From a virus (Duplodnaviria > Heunggongvirae > Uroviricota > Caudoviricetes), in the IMG/VR virus record IMGVR_UViG_2778261301_000023: DNA of 30,056 bases; one strand, 5' to 3'. The position numbers were made by a program, and so were the translations under genes. Below, piece after piece: positions 5,376 to 28,227 of this stretch; position 1 is the stretch's first letter, and every line of letters begins with the position of its first letter. The notes below the pieces were generated by a model. The model was not told where the DNA came from. It saw only the letters and a list, made by a program, of their open reading frames with translations, and made no database searches.

Positions 5376-5998
5376 TTTTGAATCACCGTTGTTGCATAAG
5401 AATAAATAAAAGGGAGTTTTACATATTTCTGGTCAATGGCATCTTTCAGAAAATAGCCTATACCATCACCATATTCTGGTATATGAATAGAAAAAACACT
5501 GTCCGACACAGTCACGCTCACATCAAAAGTGTGCTGCAACGGCGGGTCTATTCCGTTTTTCCCATGAATGAACCGTGCCACACGGCGCTTTAACCAGTCA
5601 ATACAGAAATGCGAACCGTCAGCCTTATAAAAATTCCAAGTTAATATTCGCTTGAAATAATCATCCGGAACATACGATGCCTGCCCCGGAACATAATTCC
5701 GCATTGCCGCATAAGGGATTGTATTGTATTCAATGGTATCGTATGCGCCGCGTGCAATAGCCTCCTCGGAAACCTGTAGTAAAGGCCTTTCAACGCCATA
5801 AATCCCGAGAGCAATCCAGTCCAGCAATTGCCCGGTTATTGATTCCGATGTCCAGCATGGCAATGCCAGATTGTTGAGTGAATCGAGGTATTCCTGAGCA
5901 ATTTCATTGTATGCATCAAAGAACGCAACAACATTCGGATCATCTCTGTACTGCACAAACGGATAAGCAGGGAGAATTTTTTCAGTCAGATATTGCAT
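5372..5998 (-). CDS. Baseplate/tail protein (P2 gpI / Mu gp48-like position)
   Basis: The track ORF runs 5372..6106 but overlaps the J-like gene by about 125 nt. The internal Met (MQYLTEKILPAYPF) at 5998 gives a short, coupling-type overlap. Assignment is by position between the J-like gene and the fiber. Confidence 0.55.
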   Translation of the reverse strand: MQYLTEKILPAYPFVQYRDDPNVVAFFDAYNEIAQEYLDSLNNLALPCWTSESITGQLLDWIALGIYGVERPLLQVSEEAIARGAYDTIEYNTIPYAAMRNYVPGQASYVPDDYFKRILTWNFYKADGSHFCIDWLKRRVARFIHGKNGIDPPLQHTFDVSVTVSDSVFSIHIPEYGDGIGYFLKDAIDQKYVKLPFIYSYATTVIQK

Positions 5999-7208
5999 AC
6001 TTGTTAACTTGAACCTGTGATGCCACTGTCGAAAAATAGGAATAGGTATCGCCATAAACCAGGCTTGTGTCTTTTGCCGGAAGAACAATATGACCATTAA
6101 TGCCAATGCTCACACTGATTGTTGAGATCAACGTCGCATCAACCAGCAACCTGACAGAACTGGTAAAAATATCCTGGATACGCAGAAGATTTATCGGGTG
6201 TCCGACTTCAATTGAATTGATGTAATCAGCAACGTTTTGCTGCACAGCCATAGCAATACCCGCCGGATCAACATAATCATCAGACACCGTGTTCCAGGTG
6301 ATTAGCACCATGACGTTTTGTGATGACGGGATAACGAACGGCACCTGATAAACGTCCGGCGAAACGGTTATTGAAACCGTGCGTTTTTCCACTGCCGCAC
6401 CGGATGGATTGCTTACATCGTTGGTCAGTTTCGAAATATCCGGTACAGATTTGTAAATCGCATAAGCCACATCATACGGATCACCGCCACCAACAACCGC
6501 AACCCATTTCCCCAGCGACGACTGCCGGAAAGAAATCAGGTTTTCTCGCACACCGCTTACTGATTTGAGCATCGCTTTATAGCAATCCGGTGTTCCCTGC
6601 ACACCAAACATACCGGACTCCATGACTTCGGCGCGGTAAGATGCCCACGTCTGCGCCTCCTGACCTGGCATCCCTGCGGTAAGGTTCGTGCATTTTACAG
6701 GCTGGTCTTTTGGTACTGAGGTAATAACCTGCGTCACAGTCCCTTCCGGTACAGCCCATGAGCCTGACGTTGTGGCCACACAGTAGACTGGTTCAGTCTG
6801 CCCACTTTCCGGCACCACCGTATCGCGGGAAACTGCATACTGGTAGTTGCCATCACCGACAACAAATCCTTTAGGGATACCAAACCCCGGCAACGCCTCA
6901 AATACCACGTATACCGCCGTATTTGTACTTAATCCCTTCTGTGCTCCATAAATGTTTCCGAGTTGCATCAGTAACGGAATATTTGCGCCGTATGGGCTTA
7001 CGGAGTTAATAAGGTCCACCCGCGCCTGGTCTATTAATGCCAGCGCCCCGACTGCCGTGCTGGCAAGGTCAGTAATAAGCCCCGCCGGAAGGTTGGCTGT
7101 ATATCCAGGTACTTTTTCAGCAACTCTGATGATAAGATTTGCAAGCAAATCATTGGGTGGCGTAGGCTGCGCCCCCGCACTGGTCATAGTAATTGGTATT
7201 TCTGACAT
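5982..7208 (-). CDS. Baseplate J-like protein, 408 aa
   Basis: Size and position are typical of the baseplate J family in Mu/P2-type tails. GGAG ribosome-binding site upstream of the ATG at 7206-7208. Confidence 0.65.
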   Translation of the reverse strand: MSEIPITMTSAGAQPTPPNDLLANLIIRVAEKVPGYTANLPAGLITDLASTAVGALALIDQARVDLINSVSPYGANIPLLMQLGNIYGAQKGLSTNTAVYVVFEALPGFGIPKGFVVGDGNYQYAVSRDTVVPESGQTEPVYCVATTSGSWAVPEGTVTQVITSVPKDQPVKCTNLTAGMPGQEAQTWASYRAEVMESGMFGVQGTPDCYKAMLKSVSGVRENLISFRQSSLGKWVAVVGGGDPYDVAYAIYKSVPDISKLTNDVSNPSGAAVEKRTVSITVSPDVYQVPFVIPSSQNVMVLITWNTVSDDYVDPAGIAMAVQQNVADYINSIEVGHPINLLRIQDIFTSSVRLLVDATLISTISVSIGINGHIVLPAKDTSLVYGDTYSYFSTVASQVQVNKYAISD

Positions 7209-7220
7209 ATTTACTCCATT

Positions 7221-7246
7221 AAAAAACCCGCTTTCGCGGGTTTTTT
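7221..7246 (-). terminator. Palindromic intrinsic terminator immediately 3' of the inserted nuclease gene and 13 bp upstream of the J-like start
   Basis: aaaaaa-cccgc-tttc-gcggg-tttttt: GC stem flanked by A6 and T6, so it can act in either direction. Confidence 0.6.
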
Positions 7247-7248
7247 AC

Positions 7249-8409
7249 TTATTCAACCTCTTCTAAACTGCTCACTCTGGACCCTCGGCGGAAATTATCA
7301 TCATTTTTAACATACTCGTATGAATCCAGAATCAAACCAGATATGCGAAGTATATCTTCCGGATTAGTTATATGTATCCTTTTACCATCCGTATCAAGTC
7401 GAGCTCGTCTTATTTCATTCAACTGAACTTCACTAAGCGAAATAGGTAAAGTTATAAATGAAGATTTTTTATCATAAAATCTTAACAGCCATCTATTAGT
7501 TTTACCATTCAATAGCACACCAAAATATGACTCAGTATCTTTATATTCTATATTATCTTCTGTTTGTATGATTTGTTTTACCCTTTCAAATAGCTCCAAT
7601 TCTTTGGCTGTGGTTATTATGTTGGGGTTTTCTTCATCAACAATGGCGTTATTAACTTGTGTATCCGTTGCATCATTTTCTTTAGTTTGCTCTACCGGTT
7701 GTGTAGATAGCCCGGAAACCACCATTGCGCTAACAGCGCGCTCAACGGCCTGTTTAACTAATGGAGTCACGAACTCAAGAAATCTCTGATTAAGTTGTCT
7801 CTCAATATTTGAACGACTAGCAACATATCGAACAAACTCCAGATCAACTTCACGAAGACTAGAACTGATTGTTTTAGTAAATGAATTCAAATAAACACTT
7901 TCTTCAGCCAGTGTCCGTAAAGCCTCTGGTTTGAATTTATCATAACGAAAACGAAATAATTGTGTAATATCGGAGTGAGTTAGAGAATCCATTCTTATTT
8001 TTAAAAACGGCGTTGAATCCATTATGTTTTTTTGTTTCAAATCCGTAAAAAAACGCCATTCAACACCATTTGTAATGGCTGATATAGTAACTTCCGGTGT
8101 TGAATTAAAATATCTTGATAGCTGTGGGCAGTGATTATCAATTTGTTCTGAAAACGATTTCGCCTCAATGAACATCACAGGAACATCATGACAAAATAAA
8201 GCGTAATCAACCCGTTCATTAGCCTTAACCCCGGGGAAGTCAGCACTATACTCAGCTTTGACTTTTCTTGGATCATACGGAGTAAAACCAAGAATATCTA
8301 GTAATGGCATAATGAGTGCTTGTTTTGTCGTTTCTTCAGTTGTACAAAACACCCCCATTTTTGCAACATGCTCTGTGTGTATTTTTAACTTATTTGCAAA
8401 ATTTTCCAT
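7249..8409 (-). CDS. Stand-alone PD-(D/E)xK nuclease of the type I restriction HsdR N-terminal (HsdR_N) kind with an uncharacterised C-terminal half; AT-rich cargo gene
   Basis: N-terminal region shows the HsdR_N-type pattern: TTEETTKQALIMPLLDILGF ... RVDYALF ... VMFIEAKSF, giving candidate D and E-x-K catalytic residues. The strong GGAGGAG site lies before the second ATG (8407-8409); the track ORF extends to 8424. The gene is strikingly more AT-rich than the flanking baseplate genes and has its own terminator. Confidence 0.6.
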   Translation of the reverse strand: MENFANKLKIHTEHVAKMGVFCTTEETTKQALIMPLLDILGFTPYDPRKVKAEYSADFPGVKANERVDYALFCHDVPVMFIEAKSFSEQIDNHCPQLSRYFNSTPEVTISAITNGVEWRFFTDLKQKNIMDSTPFLKIRMDSLTHSDITQLFRFRYDKFKPEALRTLAEESVYLNSFTKTISSSLREVDLEFVRYVASRSNIERQLNQRFLEFVTPLVKQAVERAVSAMVVSGLSTQPVEQTKENDATDTQVNNAIVDEENPNIITTAKELELFERVKQIIQTEDNIEYKDTESYFGVLLNGKTNRWLLRFYDKKSSFITLPISLSEVQLNEIRRARLDTDGKRIHITNPEDILRISGLILDSYEYVKNDDNFRRGSRVSSLEEVE

Positions 8410-8437
8410 GCTTGTCTCCTCCATGGTAACAATATGT

Positions 8438-8467
8438 ATTTTGCAAATCCGAAATAATATATGTCAA
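8438..8467 (-). promoter_or_regulatory. Possible sigma70-like promoter for the nuclease cargo gene
   Basis: On the minus strand, TTGACA (plus 8462-8467) is followed after about 18 nt by CAAAAT/CATATT-like -10 candidates inside a 134-bp AT-rich intergenic region. The -10 match is weak. Confidence 0.25.
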
Positions 8468-8558
8468 TATGCTCCAGCTTAGAAAATTACTCGCCCCCCT
8501 AAAATATCTCTCTACAGCACTCCAAACCAAGGTAAAAGTTTTATCATAAAACTGTGAT

Positions 8559-8906
8559 TCATACCGGCACCTGCGTCCGGTAACTGGTCCCATTAAAAAA
8601 CACAACATCGATGTTATAGGTGGGGTTATCTGCTCCATCTACCTTTGAAATTGCCAGTGATGCAAAATACCCAGCAAACTGTTGCTGAACCATGTTCACA
8701 TAGTAGTCTGGGTAAATCTGCTGCACGATGCACTGCTGTGCAGGAATACCGTAATTCGCGTAAAACGGCGACTCCCCCAATCCCAGCTTTAACGTCTGAA
8801 TGAGCGTCGTCAGCCAGCCGTAGGAGAAATCACCGTTGGCGTCAGATTCTACTGCAACCCATTTTTTGTTGCCGTTCGCGTCGGTGACGCGGCCCCATGT
8901 TCTCAT
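8559..8906 (-). CDS. Putative baseplate protein (gpW/gp25-like position), 115 aa
   Basis: Assigned by size and position between the spike-like and J-like genes. I could not confirm any family motif by eye. Confidence 0.4.
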   Translation of the reverse strand: MRTWGRVTDANGNKKWVAVESDANGDFSYGWLTTLIQTLKLGLGESPFYANYGIPAQQCIVQQIYPDYYVNMVQQQFAGYFASLAISKVDGADNPTYNIDVVFFNGTSYRTQVPV

Positions 8907-9106
8907 CGTGCCCCCATCACTTTAACTAACTCTGTCAGTACTGGTGAAAAGGCAAATGCTAAAGCTACGAGTGCAGCGGTGTAATACATGCGTCGTAAGG
9001 TATTGCTTTTTGCCACTAATTTTAAGGCTTTCACAATCCAGTCTCCTCCGCTAAAATTAATCACGGAAGACCTCCAAACATACGTAATCATCCCTTGCGT
9101 ATTCAA
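8903..9106 (-). CDS. Small hypothetical protein with a C-terminal hydrophobic segment (YYTAALVALAFAFSPVL)
   Basis: Short ORF whose stop overlaps the downstream start (ATGA). The start codon is uncertain. Confidence 0.3.
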   Translation of the reverse strand: MNTQGMITYVWRSSVINFSGGDWIVKALKLVAKSNTLRRMYYTAALVALAFAFSPVLTELVKVMGAR

Positions 9107-9119
9107 GGTGAGAAACAGA

Positions 9120-9157
9120 AAACCCCGACTGGGCCAACAGTCGGGGTTTTCGTTTTA
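9120..9157 (-). terminator. Intrinsic terminator-like hairpin inside the baseplate gene cluster
   Basis: Stem ccccgactg (9124-9132) / cagtcgggg (9139-9147) with loop ggccaa, flanked by AAAA and TTTTCGTTTT; T-rich on either strand. Confidence 0.5.
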
Positions 9158-9188
9158 TGGTCAGAATTTAAAGTGAAATGAACCGGTA

Positions 9189-9902
9189 TTAACCAGGATT
9201 TGGTTTCTTCGACGTAATCGTGCTGCTGCCGCTTTGAACACCAGTCACATCGTGGCTGTGGCCGCTGACGCTCACGCCGTTGATAACTGCATCCATCTCG
9301 ACATTAAGAGGACCAATCAGCGAAGCGGTTGTATCCTTCATCTGGGCTTTGTCCTGGACGATCGGTCCATTGAGGTGAATTTTCCCGTTCAGGAAAATAT
9401 CTTCGGCCTCGAGGTAAACAGCTTTCGACTTTTGCCTGATTTCTTCCAGAGCCACCATTACCGAGCTACTGCCGTCCTCTGTTTTGAGGATCGCGCCATC
9501 CGGACCGTACAAAACGATTTTTTGCGGATCTTCGTCGGACCACTCCTTGTTTGCCAATGGCACGAAAAACAGGGGAGTGAGCGACATCGAGTAAGAAAGC
9601 GTTGCCATACCGGTTCCCAATCCGGACACACCGCGCAGTGATACATCAGCGGCAATTGTTACTCCTCGATCGCCCGGCTGTATCGGGTAACGGATATACG
9701 GGAATGTGGCGACAGGGATTGTTATCTGCGGGAAGTTGATCCCCTCCGGCAGCATATCAAACTGAACTGTCACTATTTGCCCGCAGATATCGACAACATG
9801 GCAGGGCAATTCGCGGCCTTTAAGCTCGGCTTGCTGGTTACCAGAACTGGTCATCATCTCCGACAGTGTTCGGAGAAACGGTAATTTTTGAGCGTTTGAC
9901 AT
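9189..9902 (-). CDS. Baseplate spike / assembly protein V-like, 237 aa
   Basis: Position after the hub-like gene; C-terminal SGHSHDVTG recalls the His-containing apex motifs of gpV-type spikes. The stop overlaps the upstream gene. Confidence 0.55.
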   Translation of the reverse strand: MSNAQKLPFLRTLSEMMTSSGNQQAELKGRELPCHVVDICGQIVTVQFDMLPEGINFPQITIPVATFPYIRYPIQPGDRGVTIAADVSLRGVSGLGTGMATLSYSMSLTPLFFVPLANKEWSDEDPQKIVLYGPDGAILKTEDGSSSVMVALEEIRQKSKAVYLEAEDIFLNGKIHLNGPIVQDKAQMKDTTASLIGPLNVEMDAVINGVSVSGHSHDVTGVQSGSSTITSKKPNPG

Positions 9903-21701: not shown

Positions 21702-22515
21702 GTTTGCCCTTCTCCGTTAAAAATTCGTCGGGTAGTTTCTGAGGGGCGTAGATCGGCAGAGCATCGCAACTGCAATAAACCTCCTCCCCGGCAGCAGTGA
21801 TTTCGTCATAAAAACCATATACGGGCTTAATAAGCCCCTGCTCCAGCGCCCACGAATCGCGGAGGAGATAAATTTTCTCGTCGCGCTCTTTGTGGTCCTG
21901 TCGGTATTTGTAGCCCGGACGCCGCCAGTTAGAATGCCAGCGCAGAGCAATCGCACCACTCTGAACAGCCAGCAGATACTTAACGTTGCTCGCCAGCTTA
22001 TGTCCCTGGTCAATTGCCACCCGGCGACTGATAAAATCCATATCCTTCACGGACTTCTGAAAACCGGACTTCACTTCCCGGCGATCAATTTCGCTCACCC
22101 CGTCAGGCGGAATGGACGTAACCCATCCCTGAAAACGCTGTATGGTTTTCTCGATAGCCTGTTCGCGGTTGAGTTTTATCAGGTTGGCACTGGCGAAAAT
22201 TCGCCTGTCGAGTTCCTTGCGAAACTCAGGTTTCAGTTTTTCAACAGTGATTTTTTTAGGGCCGTCAGGAGGCTGATCCCGTAATGCCCCGCCGTCGATG
22301 ACAAGACGGCTGTAGATAGCGGTGAGATGTTTTCTGGCTACGGTATCATCAGGGGTTTCTCGCTGAGCGGCTACACGGAGTTTCCGGCACCATTCGAGCA
22401 ATGATTTTTCGCTATCCCACCCGTGATTTACGTAGTAGTTAACGGCATCCGTCAGAACCTCATACAGCGTCCTGATCCGTTTCGTCTTCCTCCCCGCCCG
22501 GCTGGAAATTGCCAT
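21682..22515 (-). CDS. Head morphogenesis protein (Mu F-like position)
   Basis: Follows the portal gene. The track ORF (to 22653) overlaps the portal by 194 nt, so an internal start (MAISSRAGRK, about 22515) is more likely; the exact start is uncertain. Confidence 0.5.
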   Translation of the reverse strand: MAISSRAGRKTKRIRTLYEVLTDAVNYYVNHGWDSEKSLLEWCRKLRVAAQRETPDDTVARKHLTAIYSRLVIDGGALRDQPPDGPKKITVEKLKPEFRKELDRRIFASANLIKLNREQAIEKTIQRFQGWVTSIPPDGVSEIDRREVKSGFQKSVKDMDFISRRVAIDQGHKLASNVKYLLAVQSGAIALRWHSNWRRPGYKYRQDHKERDEKIYLLRDSWALEQGLIKPVYGFYDEITAAGEEVYCSCDALPIYAPQKLPDEFLTEKGKREFNRA

Positions 22516-23899
22516 CAGGCGTCTCCTGCTTCGGTGGTTCATAATTCGCCAGGGCGTCCACATCAATGATGAGTGGAGCTTCGCCATAGGTCTGCGTGGC
22601 ATTAACAAGGCTTGCCAGCCATTCAGTGACGGCGGCACGGTTTTCAGGATCAACCTGTAGCGACACGGCAGAGAAAAGTGCTATCGCCTGTTGAATCACT
22701 TTACTGTCGCTTTCCCGGCGTTTGTCCGGCGACTCCTCCACCAGCTCCTGCCACGTCGCGGTAAACTCGCGCCGCCACTGGTAAAACGTGGTTTTATAGT
22801 CCTCGGTTATGATGTCCGGGTAATCATTTTTCAGCGACTGATAAAATTCCTCGTTCCAGGCGATGTACTGCACCAGGCGTTCGAAATAATCCATCACAGG
22901 TTCAATCTGCTGGCGTACACCATCGATATACTGGCTGATGGCTTTCGAGTCCTCGGTTCCTTCACCGAAACCATTCGAGAAAGCCTCCTCCTTGATGAGA
23001 ATCGCGGGAACATCGCTACCTGATGCAATATCGGAAATAATGTTGTCGCGGGCGGCATTTAGCGCGCCATCGATGTTTTGTAAATTCAGCGAGGTAACGT
23101 CCTCATCCTTCCCGATACTAAGCACACCTTTATTTTTTGCCTCTTTGACATTTTCCCTTTTTCGTCCCGTGGCGGCAGCCATGATCCCGTCAAGTTTCGA
23201 ACCATACTGCACAACTTTAGCCACCAGCACGCCTGCCTTCTGGCTGACGAGATCATTCGCCTCCATCGTATTGATATAGGATTTCAGGGAATAAAGAACG
23301 CGCTGAAACACGCTTCGCCCGGTGAATCCGAACGATGAACTCTGAAACTCCAGATAAATCGGTGTGCCATTGAAAATTTTCAGTGTGCGTGACGGATGCC
23401 AGTCTTTTCCGCCAATCTTCAGCTTTTTATTGGCTTCCTGGAAAAACGGGCTGTTTGGGTTCTGGTCAGTCACCATCGAACCAGAAGCGTTCAACGGGTC
23501 CCACGCGTTGATATACACATCATCTTCTGTCAGTCCGAATGTCGGAAGCGGCTCACGACATGGAACACTGTCGGTGCCCACGCCGATCGCTGCGGCACCG
23601 TAGCAACGAGACAGAAAAAACAGATTTTTAATCTTCTCGTTAACCTTCATACGTTCCCATACCTCCTGGAAACGCCGCACAACCCGCTCGTCAGGGTCTG
23701 TCTCCACGTTGTACTGACGCGGCTTACACATCGCCATAAGTATGGGTTTTTCGACAAGTTTTCCGCCCAGAGGATGGAATTGCCACAGCTGCTTACACAA
23801 TTCATAGCCAATGTCGGTTCCCGGCTGAATTTCTTCAGCCTCAAGAATATGCATCAGTGCTGAACCGAGGCCGCCAGTAATCTCGATCTCTGCCATCAA
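22460..23899 (-). CDS. Portal protein, 479 aa
   Basis: Immediately downstream of the large terminase gene; size; acidic C-terminus. Confidence 0.6.
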   Translation of the reverse strand: MMAEIEITGGLGSALMHILEAEEIQPGTDIGYELCKQLWQFHPLGGKLVEKPILMAMCKPRQYNVETDPDERVVRRFQEVWERMKVNEKIKNLFFLSRCYGAAAIGVGTDSVPCREPLPTFGLTEDDVYINAWDPLNASGSMVTDQNPNSPFFQEANKKLKIGGKDWHPSRTLKIFNGTPIYLEFQSSSFGFTGRSVFQRVLYSLKSYINTMEANDLVSQKAGVLVAKVVQYGSKLDGIMAAATGRKRENVKEAKNKGVLSIGKDEDVTSLNLQNIDGALNAARDNIISDIASGSDVPAILIKEEAFSNGFGEGTEDSKAISQYIDGVRQQIEPVMDYFERLVQYIAWNEEFYQSLKNDYPDIITEDYKTTFYQWRREFTATWQELVEESPDKRRESDSKVIQQAIALFSAVSLQVDPENRAAVTEWLASLVNATQTYGEAPLIIDVDALANYEPPKQETPDGNFQPGGEEDETDQDAV

Positions 23900-26326: not shown

Positions 26327-26578
26327 TTAGTCCTGATTTTTATCCACCCTGAGTAGTTCACGCAGGGCAAAGGCATCCCCTTTTCTGGCAAGCTTAAACA
26401 ATGCCGCCCGTAGTTCGGCTTCACCTTTCGCTCTGCCCTTACGGATGGATGCGTAAAAATCTGTCATTGCTTCCCGATTTTCTTTCAGTCGGTTCAGATC
26501 AACATCCAGAACGTCAGCGATTTGTTGTGCAGTCATCCGGCACGCTGCCAGAGACTCGGCTTTCGAATACGGAATCAT
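26327..26578 (-). CDS. Small hypothetical protein, possibly DNA-binding, 83 aa
   Basis: ATG at 26576-26578 with a G-rich ribosome-binding site. Overlaps the 3' end of the upstream gene; the start is uncertain. Confidence 0.35.
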   Translation of the reverse strand: MIPYSKAESLAACRMTAQQIADVLDVDLNRLKENREAMTDFYASIRKGRAKGEAELRAALFKLARKGDAFALRELLRVDKNQD

Positions 26579-27464
26579 TTGTCACCCCCATTGATATGCA
26601 GGGTGTCTTCTTCCTGTATTTTTCGTGAAGGATTTTTACTGCAGCGTTGTTCCAAGTGACCTGATGGTGAATGCGTTTATGGCTGGCCCCCATCAGTGAG
26701 ATTTTTACGCACGAGGGCGCATACATGACGGAGTAAAAACTTTTAACGTAGGTTCCGGAATCCAGATACAGCTCGGTCATTCCGCCGCTGTTTTTCTGCG
26801 TCTGTTTCTGCCCTAACTGGACAGCACCGATCGTCATAAACAATTCACCACAGCGACCGAGATTCGTGTACGTATTCACATCCTCGTTAATGCGCCCCAT
26901 GAATGAGAACGGTCGATCAACCGAACAGATAAAGCTGTTCATTGCCTTGCGTTTCACCCACGAAGCATGGCCGCCATTGTCACCAAGAAAATCCCCGCCC
27001 TGCGACATAGCGATGGAAAGCGCAGGTATTGATTCGTAGTACGCCAGCATTTCAGAAAGGATCGCATCCAGTTTTCTTATCGGGAAATAGGCCTGGTCAT
27101 AGTTGCGATCCACCCGAAACTGGAACTCGTGATAATCATCATCGAGCTGAATGAAGTATTTACACCCGACCAGTTTTGCCAGGTCGAAACAGGCATTACG
27201 GGCGTAAAAAATTGAGCGGCGATCACCGAAATTATCGGCTTCGTCAAAACGACTGGCTATATCGGCTTTGGAAAACACCAGCACCTGTTCACCAAATTCA
27301 ACTATGTACTGATGCCGTGTCTTATCTTCATCATCAACAACGATAAAAATTTTCCCGGTATAGCCAGCACGACGCAACGTCCGGTAAGTCAGAACTTTGT
27401 CCGGTCGCCCGTGAGTCAGAATAAAGGCGCAAAAATCATCACGCATATTCCTCCTCCCCGCCAT
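26514..27464 (-). CDS. Soluble family-2-like (GT-A fold) glycosyltransferase-like protein, 316 aa
   Basis: IFIVVDDEDKT and ARN..(about 14 residues)..YFIQLDDDY resemble the GT2 pattern (hhhVVDDxSxD ... ARNxG ... hhhLDxDD) as I recall it. No transmembrane segments. Coupled to the ParB-like gene. Confidence 0.4.
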   Translation of the reverse strand: MAGRRNMRDDFCAFILTHGRPDKVLTYRTLRRAGYTGKIFIVVDDEDKTRHQYIVEFGEQVLVFSKADIASRFDEADNFGDRRSIFYARNACFDLAKLVGCKYFIQLDDDYHEFQFRVDRNYDQAYFPIRKLDAILSEMLAYYESIPALSIAMSQGGDFLGDNGGHASWVKRKAMNSFICSVDRPFSFMGRINEDVNTYTNLGRCGELFMTIGAVQLGQKQTQKNSGGMTELYLDSGTYVKSFYSVMYAPSCVKISLMGASHKRIHHQVTWNNAAVKILHEKYRKKTPCISMGVTNDSVFESRVSGSVPDDCTTNR

Positions 27465-28227
27465 GCATGATCTCCACCATGTGCTGCGTCATCCGGACAA
27501 ATCCATTTTCAATAGCCTGCTGATAATCAATGATCACCAGCGCCGACTCCTCAAAAAGGCGCTGAATTTCAGCGGGGGCGTGAGCGTAATAATCCGCAAT
27601 TCTGCTGAAATTAAACACCGTGTGGCGTTCTGCCGCGCACAGGAGGAATTTTTCGATATCAGGCTCAAGGGACGCCGAACGTATCCGGCTGATCAGCTCC
27701 TGAGTTTTCGTATCGTCGTACAGTTCACTGATATCCGGTTTATCGCCCGACGGCTCATAAACAGGCGTATCAATTTTCGTCGTATACTGCTCCTCCTCAT
27801 TTCCGGTACCTGGCAAAACTTCCATCAACAGTTCATCAATTTCTGTTGGGCTGAATCCTGTCAGGGAGATATCAAAATCAGCATTGATTAGCTCCGACAG
27901 TTCCACCCGTAACAGTTCTTCATCCCAGCCAGCGTTGAGCGGCAGGCGATTATCTGCCAGGCGGTACGCCTTTTTCTGATCATCCGTCAGGCCAGACAGA
28001 ACAATGACCGGAACAGAATCCATTTTGAGCACCTCAGCCGCCATCACGCGACCGTGACCAGCAATAATTTCGCCCTTTTCGTCAATCAGCACCGGATTGG
28101 TCCAGCCGAATTGCTTAATGCTTTCTACCAGTTGTGCCACCTGCTCAGGGCTGTGTGTCCTGGCGTTGTGCGCATACGGAGACAGTTTTTGCAACGGGCG
28201 ATAGACGATCTTCAATTTCTCGCTCAT
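27439..28227 (-). CDS. ParB-like nuclease domain protein, 262 aa
   Basis: N-terminus (KLSPYAHNARTHSPEQVAQLVESIKQFGWTNPVLIDEKGEIIAGHGRVMAAEVL) matches the ParB N-terminal domain pattern; GAGG ribosome-binding site. Confidence 0.75.
   Translation of the reverse strand: MSEKLKIVYRPLQKLSPYAHNARTHSPEQVAQLVESIKQFGWTNPVLIDEKGEIIAGHGRVMAAEVLKMDSVPVIVLSGLTDDQKKAYRLADNRLPLNAGWDEELLRVELSELINADFDISLTGFSPTEIDELLMEVLPGTGNEEEQYTTKIDTPVYEPSGDKPDISELYDDTKTQELISRIRSASLEPDIEKFLLCAAERHTVFNFSRIADYYAHAPAEIQRLFEESALVIIDYQQAIENGFVRMTQHMVEIMHGGEEEYA

Follow-up and report, generated by a model that had tools for sequence, protein, structure and literature searches.

A stand-alone HsdR_N-type nuclease gene carried as cargo in a Rac-type lambdoid prophage, a candidate anti-phage defence gene

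Lambda rexAB, P22 sieA/sieB and P22 immI are exclusion genes that are expressed in the lysogen and lie behind the repressor or in accessory slots of the late region, and the RexA, RexB and Sie proteins act at or through the membrane. Defence against hypermodified phages is also provided by modular nucleases that lack a methyltransferase, namely the END nucleases (PMC12191111) and MdgA, PD-T4-3 and HEC-06 (10.1101/2025.02.28.640651). Upx is a single-protein dual PD-(D/E)xK defence nuclease (PMC13099982). The HsdR subunits of Type I restriction enzymes mostly retain the QxxxY motif of the RecB family of nucleases. In HsdR of EcoR124I, no DNA cleavage could be detected with Q179K or with Q179A and Y183A combined, and the remaining single QxxxY mutants slowed it (PMC2475608). 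Here we describe a gene for an HsdR_N-type nuclease in a phage-derived stretch of 30,056 nucleotides (nt), IMG/VR record IMGVR_UViG_2778261301_000023, hereafter the window, in which all unattributed coordinates are positions. The gene (7249-8409; open reading frame list, Pfam, PHROG and RefSeq) encodes 386 amino acids (aa) plus a stop codon and belongs to PHROG 4225. It lies on the minus strand, a detail that we add to a first-pass annotation of this DNA made from the sequence alone. We consider it probable (roughly 0.6) that the product is a lysogen-expressed, methyltransferase-less, restriction-like nuclease for anti-phage defence.

We identified a PD-(D/E)xK nuclease domain in residues 1-158 (7936-8409, minus strand), marked by E25/E26, D68, E82-x-K84 and Q96xxxY100. 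The protein matches Pfam HSDR_N (PF04313; E 5.6e-14, 52.9 bits against a cut-off of 25.1) and HSDR_N_2 (PF13588; 37.7 bits against a cut-off of 25). The motifs TEETTK, VDYAL and FIEAK, by which the first-pass annotation had recognised an HsdR_N-type N-terminus, are located at residues 24, 67 and 80, and the profile search bears that assignment out. An alignment was made with homologues from Gilliamella and from phages of Klebsiella, Clostridium, Streptococcus, Porphyromonas and Corynebacterium (seven sequences from four phyla, with identity down to 27%). Among the invariant residues are E25, E26, K29, D57, D68, E82, K84, Q96, R99 and Y100. Judged from this alignment, D68...E82-x-K84 is the PD-(D/E)xK triad and Q96-x-x-x-Y100 is the QxxxY motif of RecB-family nucleases. 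The active site is thus intact, and nuclease activity is predicted. In the structural model, the predicted fold of the domain is restriction-endonuclease-like and resembles the nuclease domains of HsdR, DrdV and BpuSI.

A Type I R subunit carries a superfamily 2 (SF2) motor after its nuclease domain and is encoded with hsdM and hsdS; neither feature was identified here. Pfam recovers only HSDR_N and HSDR_N_2, with no helicase or translocase motor domain, and the NCBIfam model for full-length HsdR reaches only 18.9 bits against a cut-off of 729. Also lacking are partners: in the genomic contexts examined, hsdM and hsdS are never adjacent to the nuclease gene, and no helicase, methyltransferase, ATPase or other partner is conserved with it. 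The RefSeq name "type I restriction endonuclease" is therefore unjustified, and the annotation should be corrected, as the protein is not a Type I R subunit. The HSDR_N match and the weak match to full-length HsdR are what could suggest an orphan or remnant fragment of such a subunit, either non-functional or using the HsdM and HsdS of the host. However, the protein is 386 aa long without a motor, its reading frame is intact, and its close aligned relatives are 63-87% identical to it. Moreover, it belongs to a discrete family of about 350-390 aa that has its own conserved C-terminal domain and occurs in four phyla. This architecture effectively refutes the fragment explanation, to which we give very little credence.

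The family is large. The match to PHROG 4225 ("endonuclease") extends over the full length (E 4.7e-149; residues 6-375 against profile positions 1-357 of 357), and PHROGs places this family in the category "DNA, RNA and nucleotide metabolism". We found 1354 relatives of the window protein at E <= 1e-5, and at least 8000 in a search started with the Streptococcus homologue. Among the names they bear in their sources are "type I restriction endonuclease", "endonuclease" and "prophage Lp2 protein 6", and one JGI entry reads "predicted type IV restriction endonuclease".

The homologues show a recurrent genomic placement. In enterobacterial prophages (at least five lineages) the gene is located just downstream of the repressor, on the same strand and opposite a Cro/YdaS-like gene. 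In prophages of Citrobacter, Salmonella (these are Rac-like) and Enterobacter the homologues follow the repressor co-directionally after about 20-40 nt. The repressors themselves are of differing families (CI-type, RacR-type or LexA-like). Homologues also adjoin the repressor in Klebsiella phage KpF5 and in another lambdoid prophage. In Streptococcus phage IPP25, Corynebacterium phage Juicebox and a Lactococcus element the gene is found between repressor and integrase, and in a Clostridium phage it is on the repressor side. The Lactococcus element (loci L028 and L030, 1-8327) is small, encodes a VapE-like primase, a helix-turn-helix repressor and an integrase, and its make-up suggests a phage satellite more than a complete prophage. 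A Porphyromonas phage carries its homologue among structural genes, beside HicAB and an anti-CRISPR candidate. In our interpretation, the placement of homologues behind prophage repressors independently supports a role in defence.

Homologues have also persisted outside intact prophages. Many Citrobacter koseri genomes contain, between purB and phoP, a decayed prophage remnant in which an S24-type repressor is followed 22 nt later by the nuclease gene (loci L005-L009, 5278-7152). Apart from this pair it holds just a terminase fragment, joined in some strains by a RecT fragment. This looks like domestication of a repressor-nuclease pair. In Gilliamella the homologue is a solitary chromosomal gene. 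Retention in these two settings suggests a benefit to the host.

The same contexts bear on whether the nuclease instead works for the phage itself (in recombination, in the processing of replication intermediates, in degradation of host DNA or in counter-defence). In several prophages the gene is co-stranded with the early-left genes recET, gam or kil, which would fit such a role, as would the PHROGs category and the presence of recombination and repair enzymes among the QxxxY RecB-family PD-(D/E)xK nucleases (PMC2475608). However, the gene is dispensable for this phage type, being absent from about three quarters of related prophages, and it is placed right after the repressor rather than inside the recombination cluster. 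It is also kept in the decayed remnant and as a solitary chromosomal gene, and occurs in satellite-like elements and moron clusters. We therefore consider a role in phage biology unlikely.

Less probable still is a selfish addiction or stabilisation module, in which loss of the prophage, and with it of a protective factor, would unleash the nuclease with no benefit to the host. Such behaviour could fit a gene that moves as a cassette of its own, occupies several positions in elements of several kinds and is linked to repressors. However, there is no conserved antitoxin-like partner, and the solitary chromosomal copies also lack one. The family is moreover conserved in different phyla, its active sites intact, which is in keeping with an enzymatic function under selection.

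The gene in the window occupies a variable cargo slot, or moron, at 7217-8547, which is delimited by blastn, by the other cargo found in it elsewhere and by GC content. Its downstream flank is a conserved backbone gene of the baseplate J/gp47 family that lies outside the cargo (5982-7208, minus strand; Pfam Baseplate_J, PHROG 6, RefSeq name). The upstream flank is a 115-aa gene at the W/gp25 position (8559-8906, minus strand), which is also kept in phages Rac-SA53 and pPE4. The flanks had been described as W-like and J-like baseplate genes. The J-like label stands, but the W-like label is positional only, because the 115-aa gene has no Pfam match and falls in PHROG 7986, a family without known function.

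Comparison with related phages locates the boundaries of the slot. Escherichia phage Rac-SA53 and a phage deposited as Actinobacillus phage vB_Apl-pPE4 are 91-96% (about 95%) identical to the flanks (blastn). Homology to both ends at 7216 and restarts at 8548, leaving a block of 1331 base pairs (bp) that holds one minus-strand gene; the first-pass annotation had put the insert at 7221-8558, which is nearly exact. In the slot, Rac-SA53 has 1847 bp and vB_Apl-pPE4 has 1034 bp of sequence with unrelated genes, which lie on the opposite strand and encode hypothetical proteins and an antirepressor. This phage type is present in about 100 of 5426 complete E. coli genomes, and 25 of them have the nuclease gene. 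The other ~75 carry in its place Ant or AntA/AntB antirepressors, LprI-family proteins, Rha-family regulators or hypothetical proteins. The gene is thus single-gene cargo, as first proposed, and variable amid conserved backbone genes. Its position between baseplate genes is all that would suggest a conserved structural component of the baseplate, whereas most phages of the type lack it and carry antirepressors or other cargo, the product has a nuclease domain, and homologues elsewhere reside in lysogeny modules. A structural role was rejected, and we assign it almost no probability.

The composition of the block also differs from that of its neighbours, as had been noted first. Its GC content is 0.358, compared to 0.489 +/- 0.036 in same-size segments elsewhere in the window (z = -3.6), and GC content at third codon positions is 0.258 in the nuclease gene compared to 0.44-0.59 in the adjoining tail genes. 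A second block (~600-2100), situated at the end of the prophage beyond the tail-fibre and assembly genes, has a GC content of about 0.353 and is as AT-rich as the nuclease cargo. Its plus-strand open reading frames (1-1035 and 1134-1892) have no Pfam, NCBIfam or PADLOC match, and the block may be further cargo.

E. coli EC11 is 100% identical to the window over 7100-8700 and carries a complete Rac-type prophage at ttcA, with racR, ydaS/ydaT, recET, kilR, xisR and intR. A DUF1133/Q-like gene is present between the replication and lysis genes of this prophage, and the copy in a related prophage also matches the antiterminator-Q Pfam family. Under Q-type antitermination, late transcripts can read through a moron terminator. 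An antirepressor locus surrounded by late genes is reminiscent of P22 immI. We interpret the block as a moron, that is, a self-contained, horizontally acquired and putatively independent transcription unit in a late-operon accessory slot of a Rac-type lambdoid prophage. That it is an independent cargo gene encoding an HsdR_N-type nuclease is close to certain. The EC11 prophage has further accessory genes between its replication and late-regulation regions (locus L022, 8223-11415): they encode a Hok/Gef toxin, an "ATP-dependent nuclease" with a small open reading frame after it, and a DNA cytosine methyltransferase on the opposite strand.

Sequence signals that would allow separate expression were identified on both sides of the gene. 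The strong ribosome-binding site first described, GGAGGAG (8416-8422, minus strand; read from the sequence), precedes the ATG at 8409 by 6 nt. An in-frame alternative ATG at 8424 would give an open reading frame of 391 aa (7249-8424); RefSeq WP_000426902.1 and the closest homologues also use the 386-aa start. The upstream intergenic spacer (8425-8558; the 115-aa gene has its stop codon at 8559) agrees with its first description in being AT-rich (GC 0.356) and 134 bp long when counted to the first ATG, and is 149 bp long to the likely true start. It contains a candidate sigma-70 promoter (8438-8467, minus strand), TTGACA and CAAAAT with an 18-nt spacer, which matches the consensus at 10/12 positions and is the best-scoring site in 6900-9000, although the match is not statistically distinctive. 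We sought operator-like inverted repeats upstream of the gene and found none that is convincing.

Between the stop codon of the cargo gene and the start of the J-like gene at 7208, and within the variable block, is a strong hairpin resembling a bidirectional intrinsic terminator (7220-7247; RNA fold). It has a perfect 12-bp stem, a GAAA loop, the core CCCGC/GCGGG and flanks of A6 and T6, with a free energy of -17.4 kcal/mol (z = -4.65; 0/200 shuffles fold equally well). This is the palindromic terminator of the first-pass annotation. A consensus scan did not detect it, as its A and T runs pair with one another. In 6900-9200, Rfam returned only sub-threshold matches, driven by terminator hairpins. 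Among these, the spacer after the V-like baseplate gene (9106-9183, minus strand) resembles the antisense RNAs ctRNA_pGA1 (25 bits, cut-off 45) and sar of P22 immI (22 bits, cut-off 43), and is most likely another hairpin in the baseplate operon.

The C-terminal half of the protein had been described as free of any recognisable motif. At the sequence level this holds. We identified no NCBIfam match in this half, and its 216 aa matched nothing in Pfam at E up to 10. Searches of PDB sequences with the single protein, a family profile and a C-terminal-domain profile returned chance matches only (haemagglutinin and a chemoreceptor). The structural model, however, resolves three parts. A middle segment (residues 159-235; 7705-7935, minus strand) is modelled by AlphaFold2 as long helices (residues 161-235) at low confidence, with a predicted local distance difference test (pLDDT) score of about 47-50. 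It is 83% identical in pairwise comparisons within Enterobacterales, conserved like the nuclease domain, and is a possible oligomerisation region. A poorly conserved, disordered linker follows (residues 236-262; 7624-7704, minus strand; pLDDT <50), which is acidic (isoelectric point 4.05) and has a pairwise identity of 27%. The last part (residues 263-372; 7294-7623, minus strand) is modelled confidently as a compact alpha/beta domain.

The C-terminal domain has a predicted fold like that of frataxin, YjbR and the C-terminal domain of MotA. Conserved in it are TTxxE, (K/R)DxxSY and R310, and T266, T267, E270, D291, Y295 and R310 are kept across phyla. It is acidic overall (isoelectric point 5.2) and diverges faster than the nuclease domain (63% compared to 82% mean pairwise identity within Enterobacterales). 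Its structural neighbours are YdhG, YjbR and the "double-wing" domain of T4 MotA, at 9-12% identity. The likeness is one of predicted fold only. The modelled fold agrees with that of YjbR/MmcQ (PF04237) and YdhG/DUF1801, and no sequence profile matched (Pfam at E up to 10; PDB sequences). Against viral structures, Foldseek gave no match at E <= 0.001; the best was Gp643 of Bacillus phage G (E 0.011), with MotA proteins at probability 0.5-0.75.

When searched alone against 1.84 billion representative proteins, the C-terminal domain gave 96 matches, mostly to its own family or to fragments. It recurs behind a WYL domain in one protein (P0183, 301 aa) and behind an unrelated N-terminus in another (P0176, 437 aa), which has Zn-ribbon-like cysteines and a sub-threshold TPR match; thus, it behaves as a module. 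YjbR itself adopts a fold resembling that of CyaY and was predicted to bind DNA like the MotA domain, and YjbR-like domains are fused to GIY-YIG and PLD nucleases with EVE domains in predicted defence genes (PMC7641849). The N-terminal domain of McrB, which reads 5-methylcytosine, is reported to have DUF1054 proteins and YjbR among its structural neighbours (PMC3424535). The fold predicted here overlaps this neighbourhood, and McrB-N itself is not among the top 60 structural matches of the C-terminal domain.

We propose the following mechanism. In the lysogen, the gene would be transcribed from its own candidate promoter. The HsdR/RecB-type PD-(D/E)xK domain of this single polypeptide would cut incoming foreign DNA and so bring about superinfection exclusion. 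The conserved helical segment would probably serve oligomerisation; it is followed by the flexible acidic linker and the faster-evolving C-terminal domain, a putative specificity or sensor module. Two ways of gating are considered because the host chromosome must be spared. The C-terminal domain could confine cutting to DNA with some foreign trait (hypermodified bases, or a particular form or end of the DNA). Alternatively, it could hold the nuclease inactive until a phage cue is received.

A related explanation is abortive infection by a toxin-like nuclease, kept inactive (e.g., by the C-terminal domain) and released by a phage cue to degrade DNA indiscriminately and kill the cell. This would likewise be a defence, although one that does not resemble restriction, and sequence alone does not distinguish it from direct restriction. 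However, no trigger is known and there is no evidence that the domains interact, the full-length model having low inter-domain confidence (predicted template modelling score 0.44). We regard abortive infection as a lesser possibility, somewhat more plausible than a role in phage biology.

We favour a protective nuclease made by the lysogen because of the rexAB-like placement of the homologues, retention in the remnant, the intact active site and the absence of partners. Expression in lysogens, nuclease activity, an anti-phage role and recognition by the C-terminal domain are each what we infer from these features. Several observations weigh against this interpretation. The gene in the window is not itself beside a repressor. 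The regional count of sigma-70-like sites is not above that in shuffled sequences, and the site at 8467-8438, a consensus match, is therefore a candidate promoter. Phage-borne C5 and N6 methyltransferases occur in the same prophages as the nuclease, which argues against plain 5-methylcytosine or N6-methyladenine as its target. In the literature we found no experiment on expression, nuclease activity or phage protection for this gene or its homologues. PADLOC-DB v2.0.0 returned 0 families for the protein at E up to 1. The first-pass annotation could not assign the architecture to a named system; the family itself was already catalogued, as PHROG 4225 with thousands of members.

Other sources were consulted. 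The supplements of DefensePredictor contain no entry for WP_000426902, and HsdR_N is unmentioned in a domain-centric paper of 2026 in Nucleic Acids Research. DefenseFinder lists a system "FS_HsdR_like", reportedly a single HsdR-like gene of a phage-inducible island described by Fillol-Salom et al. in 2022, which may be a relative, given that the present family also occurs in the satellite-like Lactococcus element with its VapE-type primase. No functional study of the family was found in the full-text literature searched, although one may exist elsewhere. The one mention found is in a Campylobacter comparison, in which a phage-resistant strain has such a gene, the evidence is correlative and the authors left its role open (PMC8713573). 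Separately, we rejected the idea that the nuclease pairs with the C5 methyltransferase of its prophage as a split restriction-modification system, as many family members have no methyltransferase nearby and the methyltransferase types vary between prophages.

More tentatively, and with considerable doubt, the family may be a widespread class of single-polypeptide restriction enzymes of prophages and satellites in which the frataxin/"double-wing"-like domain is a new reader. It would recognise hypermodified phage DNA, a DNA form or a phage cue and direct the HsdR-type nuclease, from a rexAB-like position behind the repressor in elements ranging from Proteobacteria to Firmicutes, Actinobacteria and Bacteroidetes. 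If so, these would be among the commonest prophage-borne defence genes, with a new sensing fold.

Should the gene encode a defence nuclease of any such kind, a very large family, with 1354 or more close relatives and no fewer than 8000 proteins in its Firmicutes branch, would gain a function. The space behind the repressor, together with late-operon accessory slots, would be a second general site for prophage defence cargo, and the C-terminal domain would be a new specificity or sensor module beside the SRA, EVE and inactive-EndoIII readers. The presence of the gene in prophages of E. coli, Salmonella, Klebsiella, Streptococcus and Lactococcus could then matter for phage therapy and for the starter cultures used in dairies. 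Given that the family is already catalogued, the interest is in the undescribed domain combination and its wide spread at a fixed functional position.

Other genes of the window deserve mention in their own right. A 316-aa protein (26514-27464, minus strand) matches Pfam TAGT, the TET-associated glycosyltransferase (E 2.4e-34). The overlapping upstream gene (27439-28227, minus strand) encodes a 262-aa protein that has a ParB_N domain and aligns to a Type II methyltransferase model of PADLOC over the N-terminal third of that model. Both are located just upstream of the small terminase gene, and the pair may belong to a module for phage DNA modification or be what remains of one. The EC11 copy of the prophage showed no TET/JBP gene, and its ParB-like gene (ynaK) is a pseudogene. 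A 479-aa protein (22460-23899, minus strand) is named "anti-CBASS protein Acb1 family protein" in RefSeq. It is encoded at the portal position beside the terminase and matches Pfam Phage_portal_3, and the RefSeq name is probably wrong.

Compared with the known systems, the window protein shares with Type I HsdR (e.g., EcoR124I) the Pfam family, the D...ExK triad, the QxxxY motif and a similar predicted fold. It differs in lacking the SF2 motor, the C-terminal helical domain for docking to the methylase, and HsdM and HsdS; it is instead a stand-alone, prophage-encoded protein of 386 aa with an unrelated C-terminal domain of its own. Upx is also a single-protein PD-(D/E)xK anti-phage nuclease with regulatory non-catalytic parts (PMC13099982). 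Identity with Upx was rejected, as the layout differs and there is no similarity.

Type IV enzymes, the END nucleases, MdgA, PD-T4-3 and HEC-06 are likewise single polypeptides that combine a nuclease with a non-catalytic module, lack a cognate methyltransferase and are found on mobile elements or in defence loci. As in Type IV systems, the nuclease gene has no cognate methyltransferase and is solitary in all contexts; a recognised modified-base reader (SRA, EVE/ASCH/PUA-like, McrB-N, NEco and similar) was not identified by Pfam. The PD-T4-3 model is included in PADLOC, with no match to the window protein. The catalytic domain is HsdR_N, whereas those of the methyltransferase-less defence nucleases are Type IIS-like, GIY-YIG or other. 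The second domain is frataxin/YjbR-like, whereas theirs are inactive EndoIII, SRA, EVE and similar.

The RexA, RexB and Sie proteins have no sequence or fold relation to the window protein, which is a soluble nuclease. The likeness to these exclusion systems is one of genomic position. Homologues of the nuclease are the first gene downstream of the repressor and share its strand, like lambda rexAB, and the gene in the window, like P22 immI, is in a late-region slot that holds ant-type antirepressors in sister phages.

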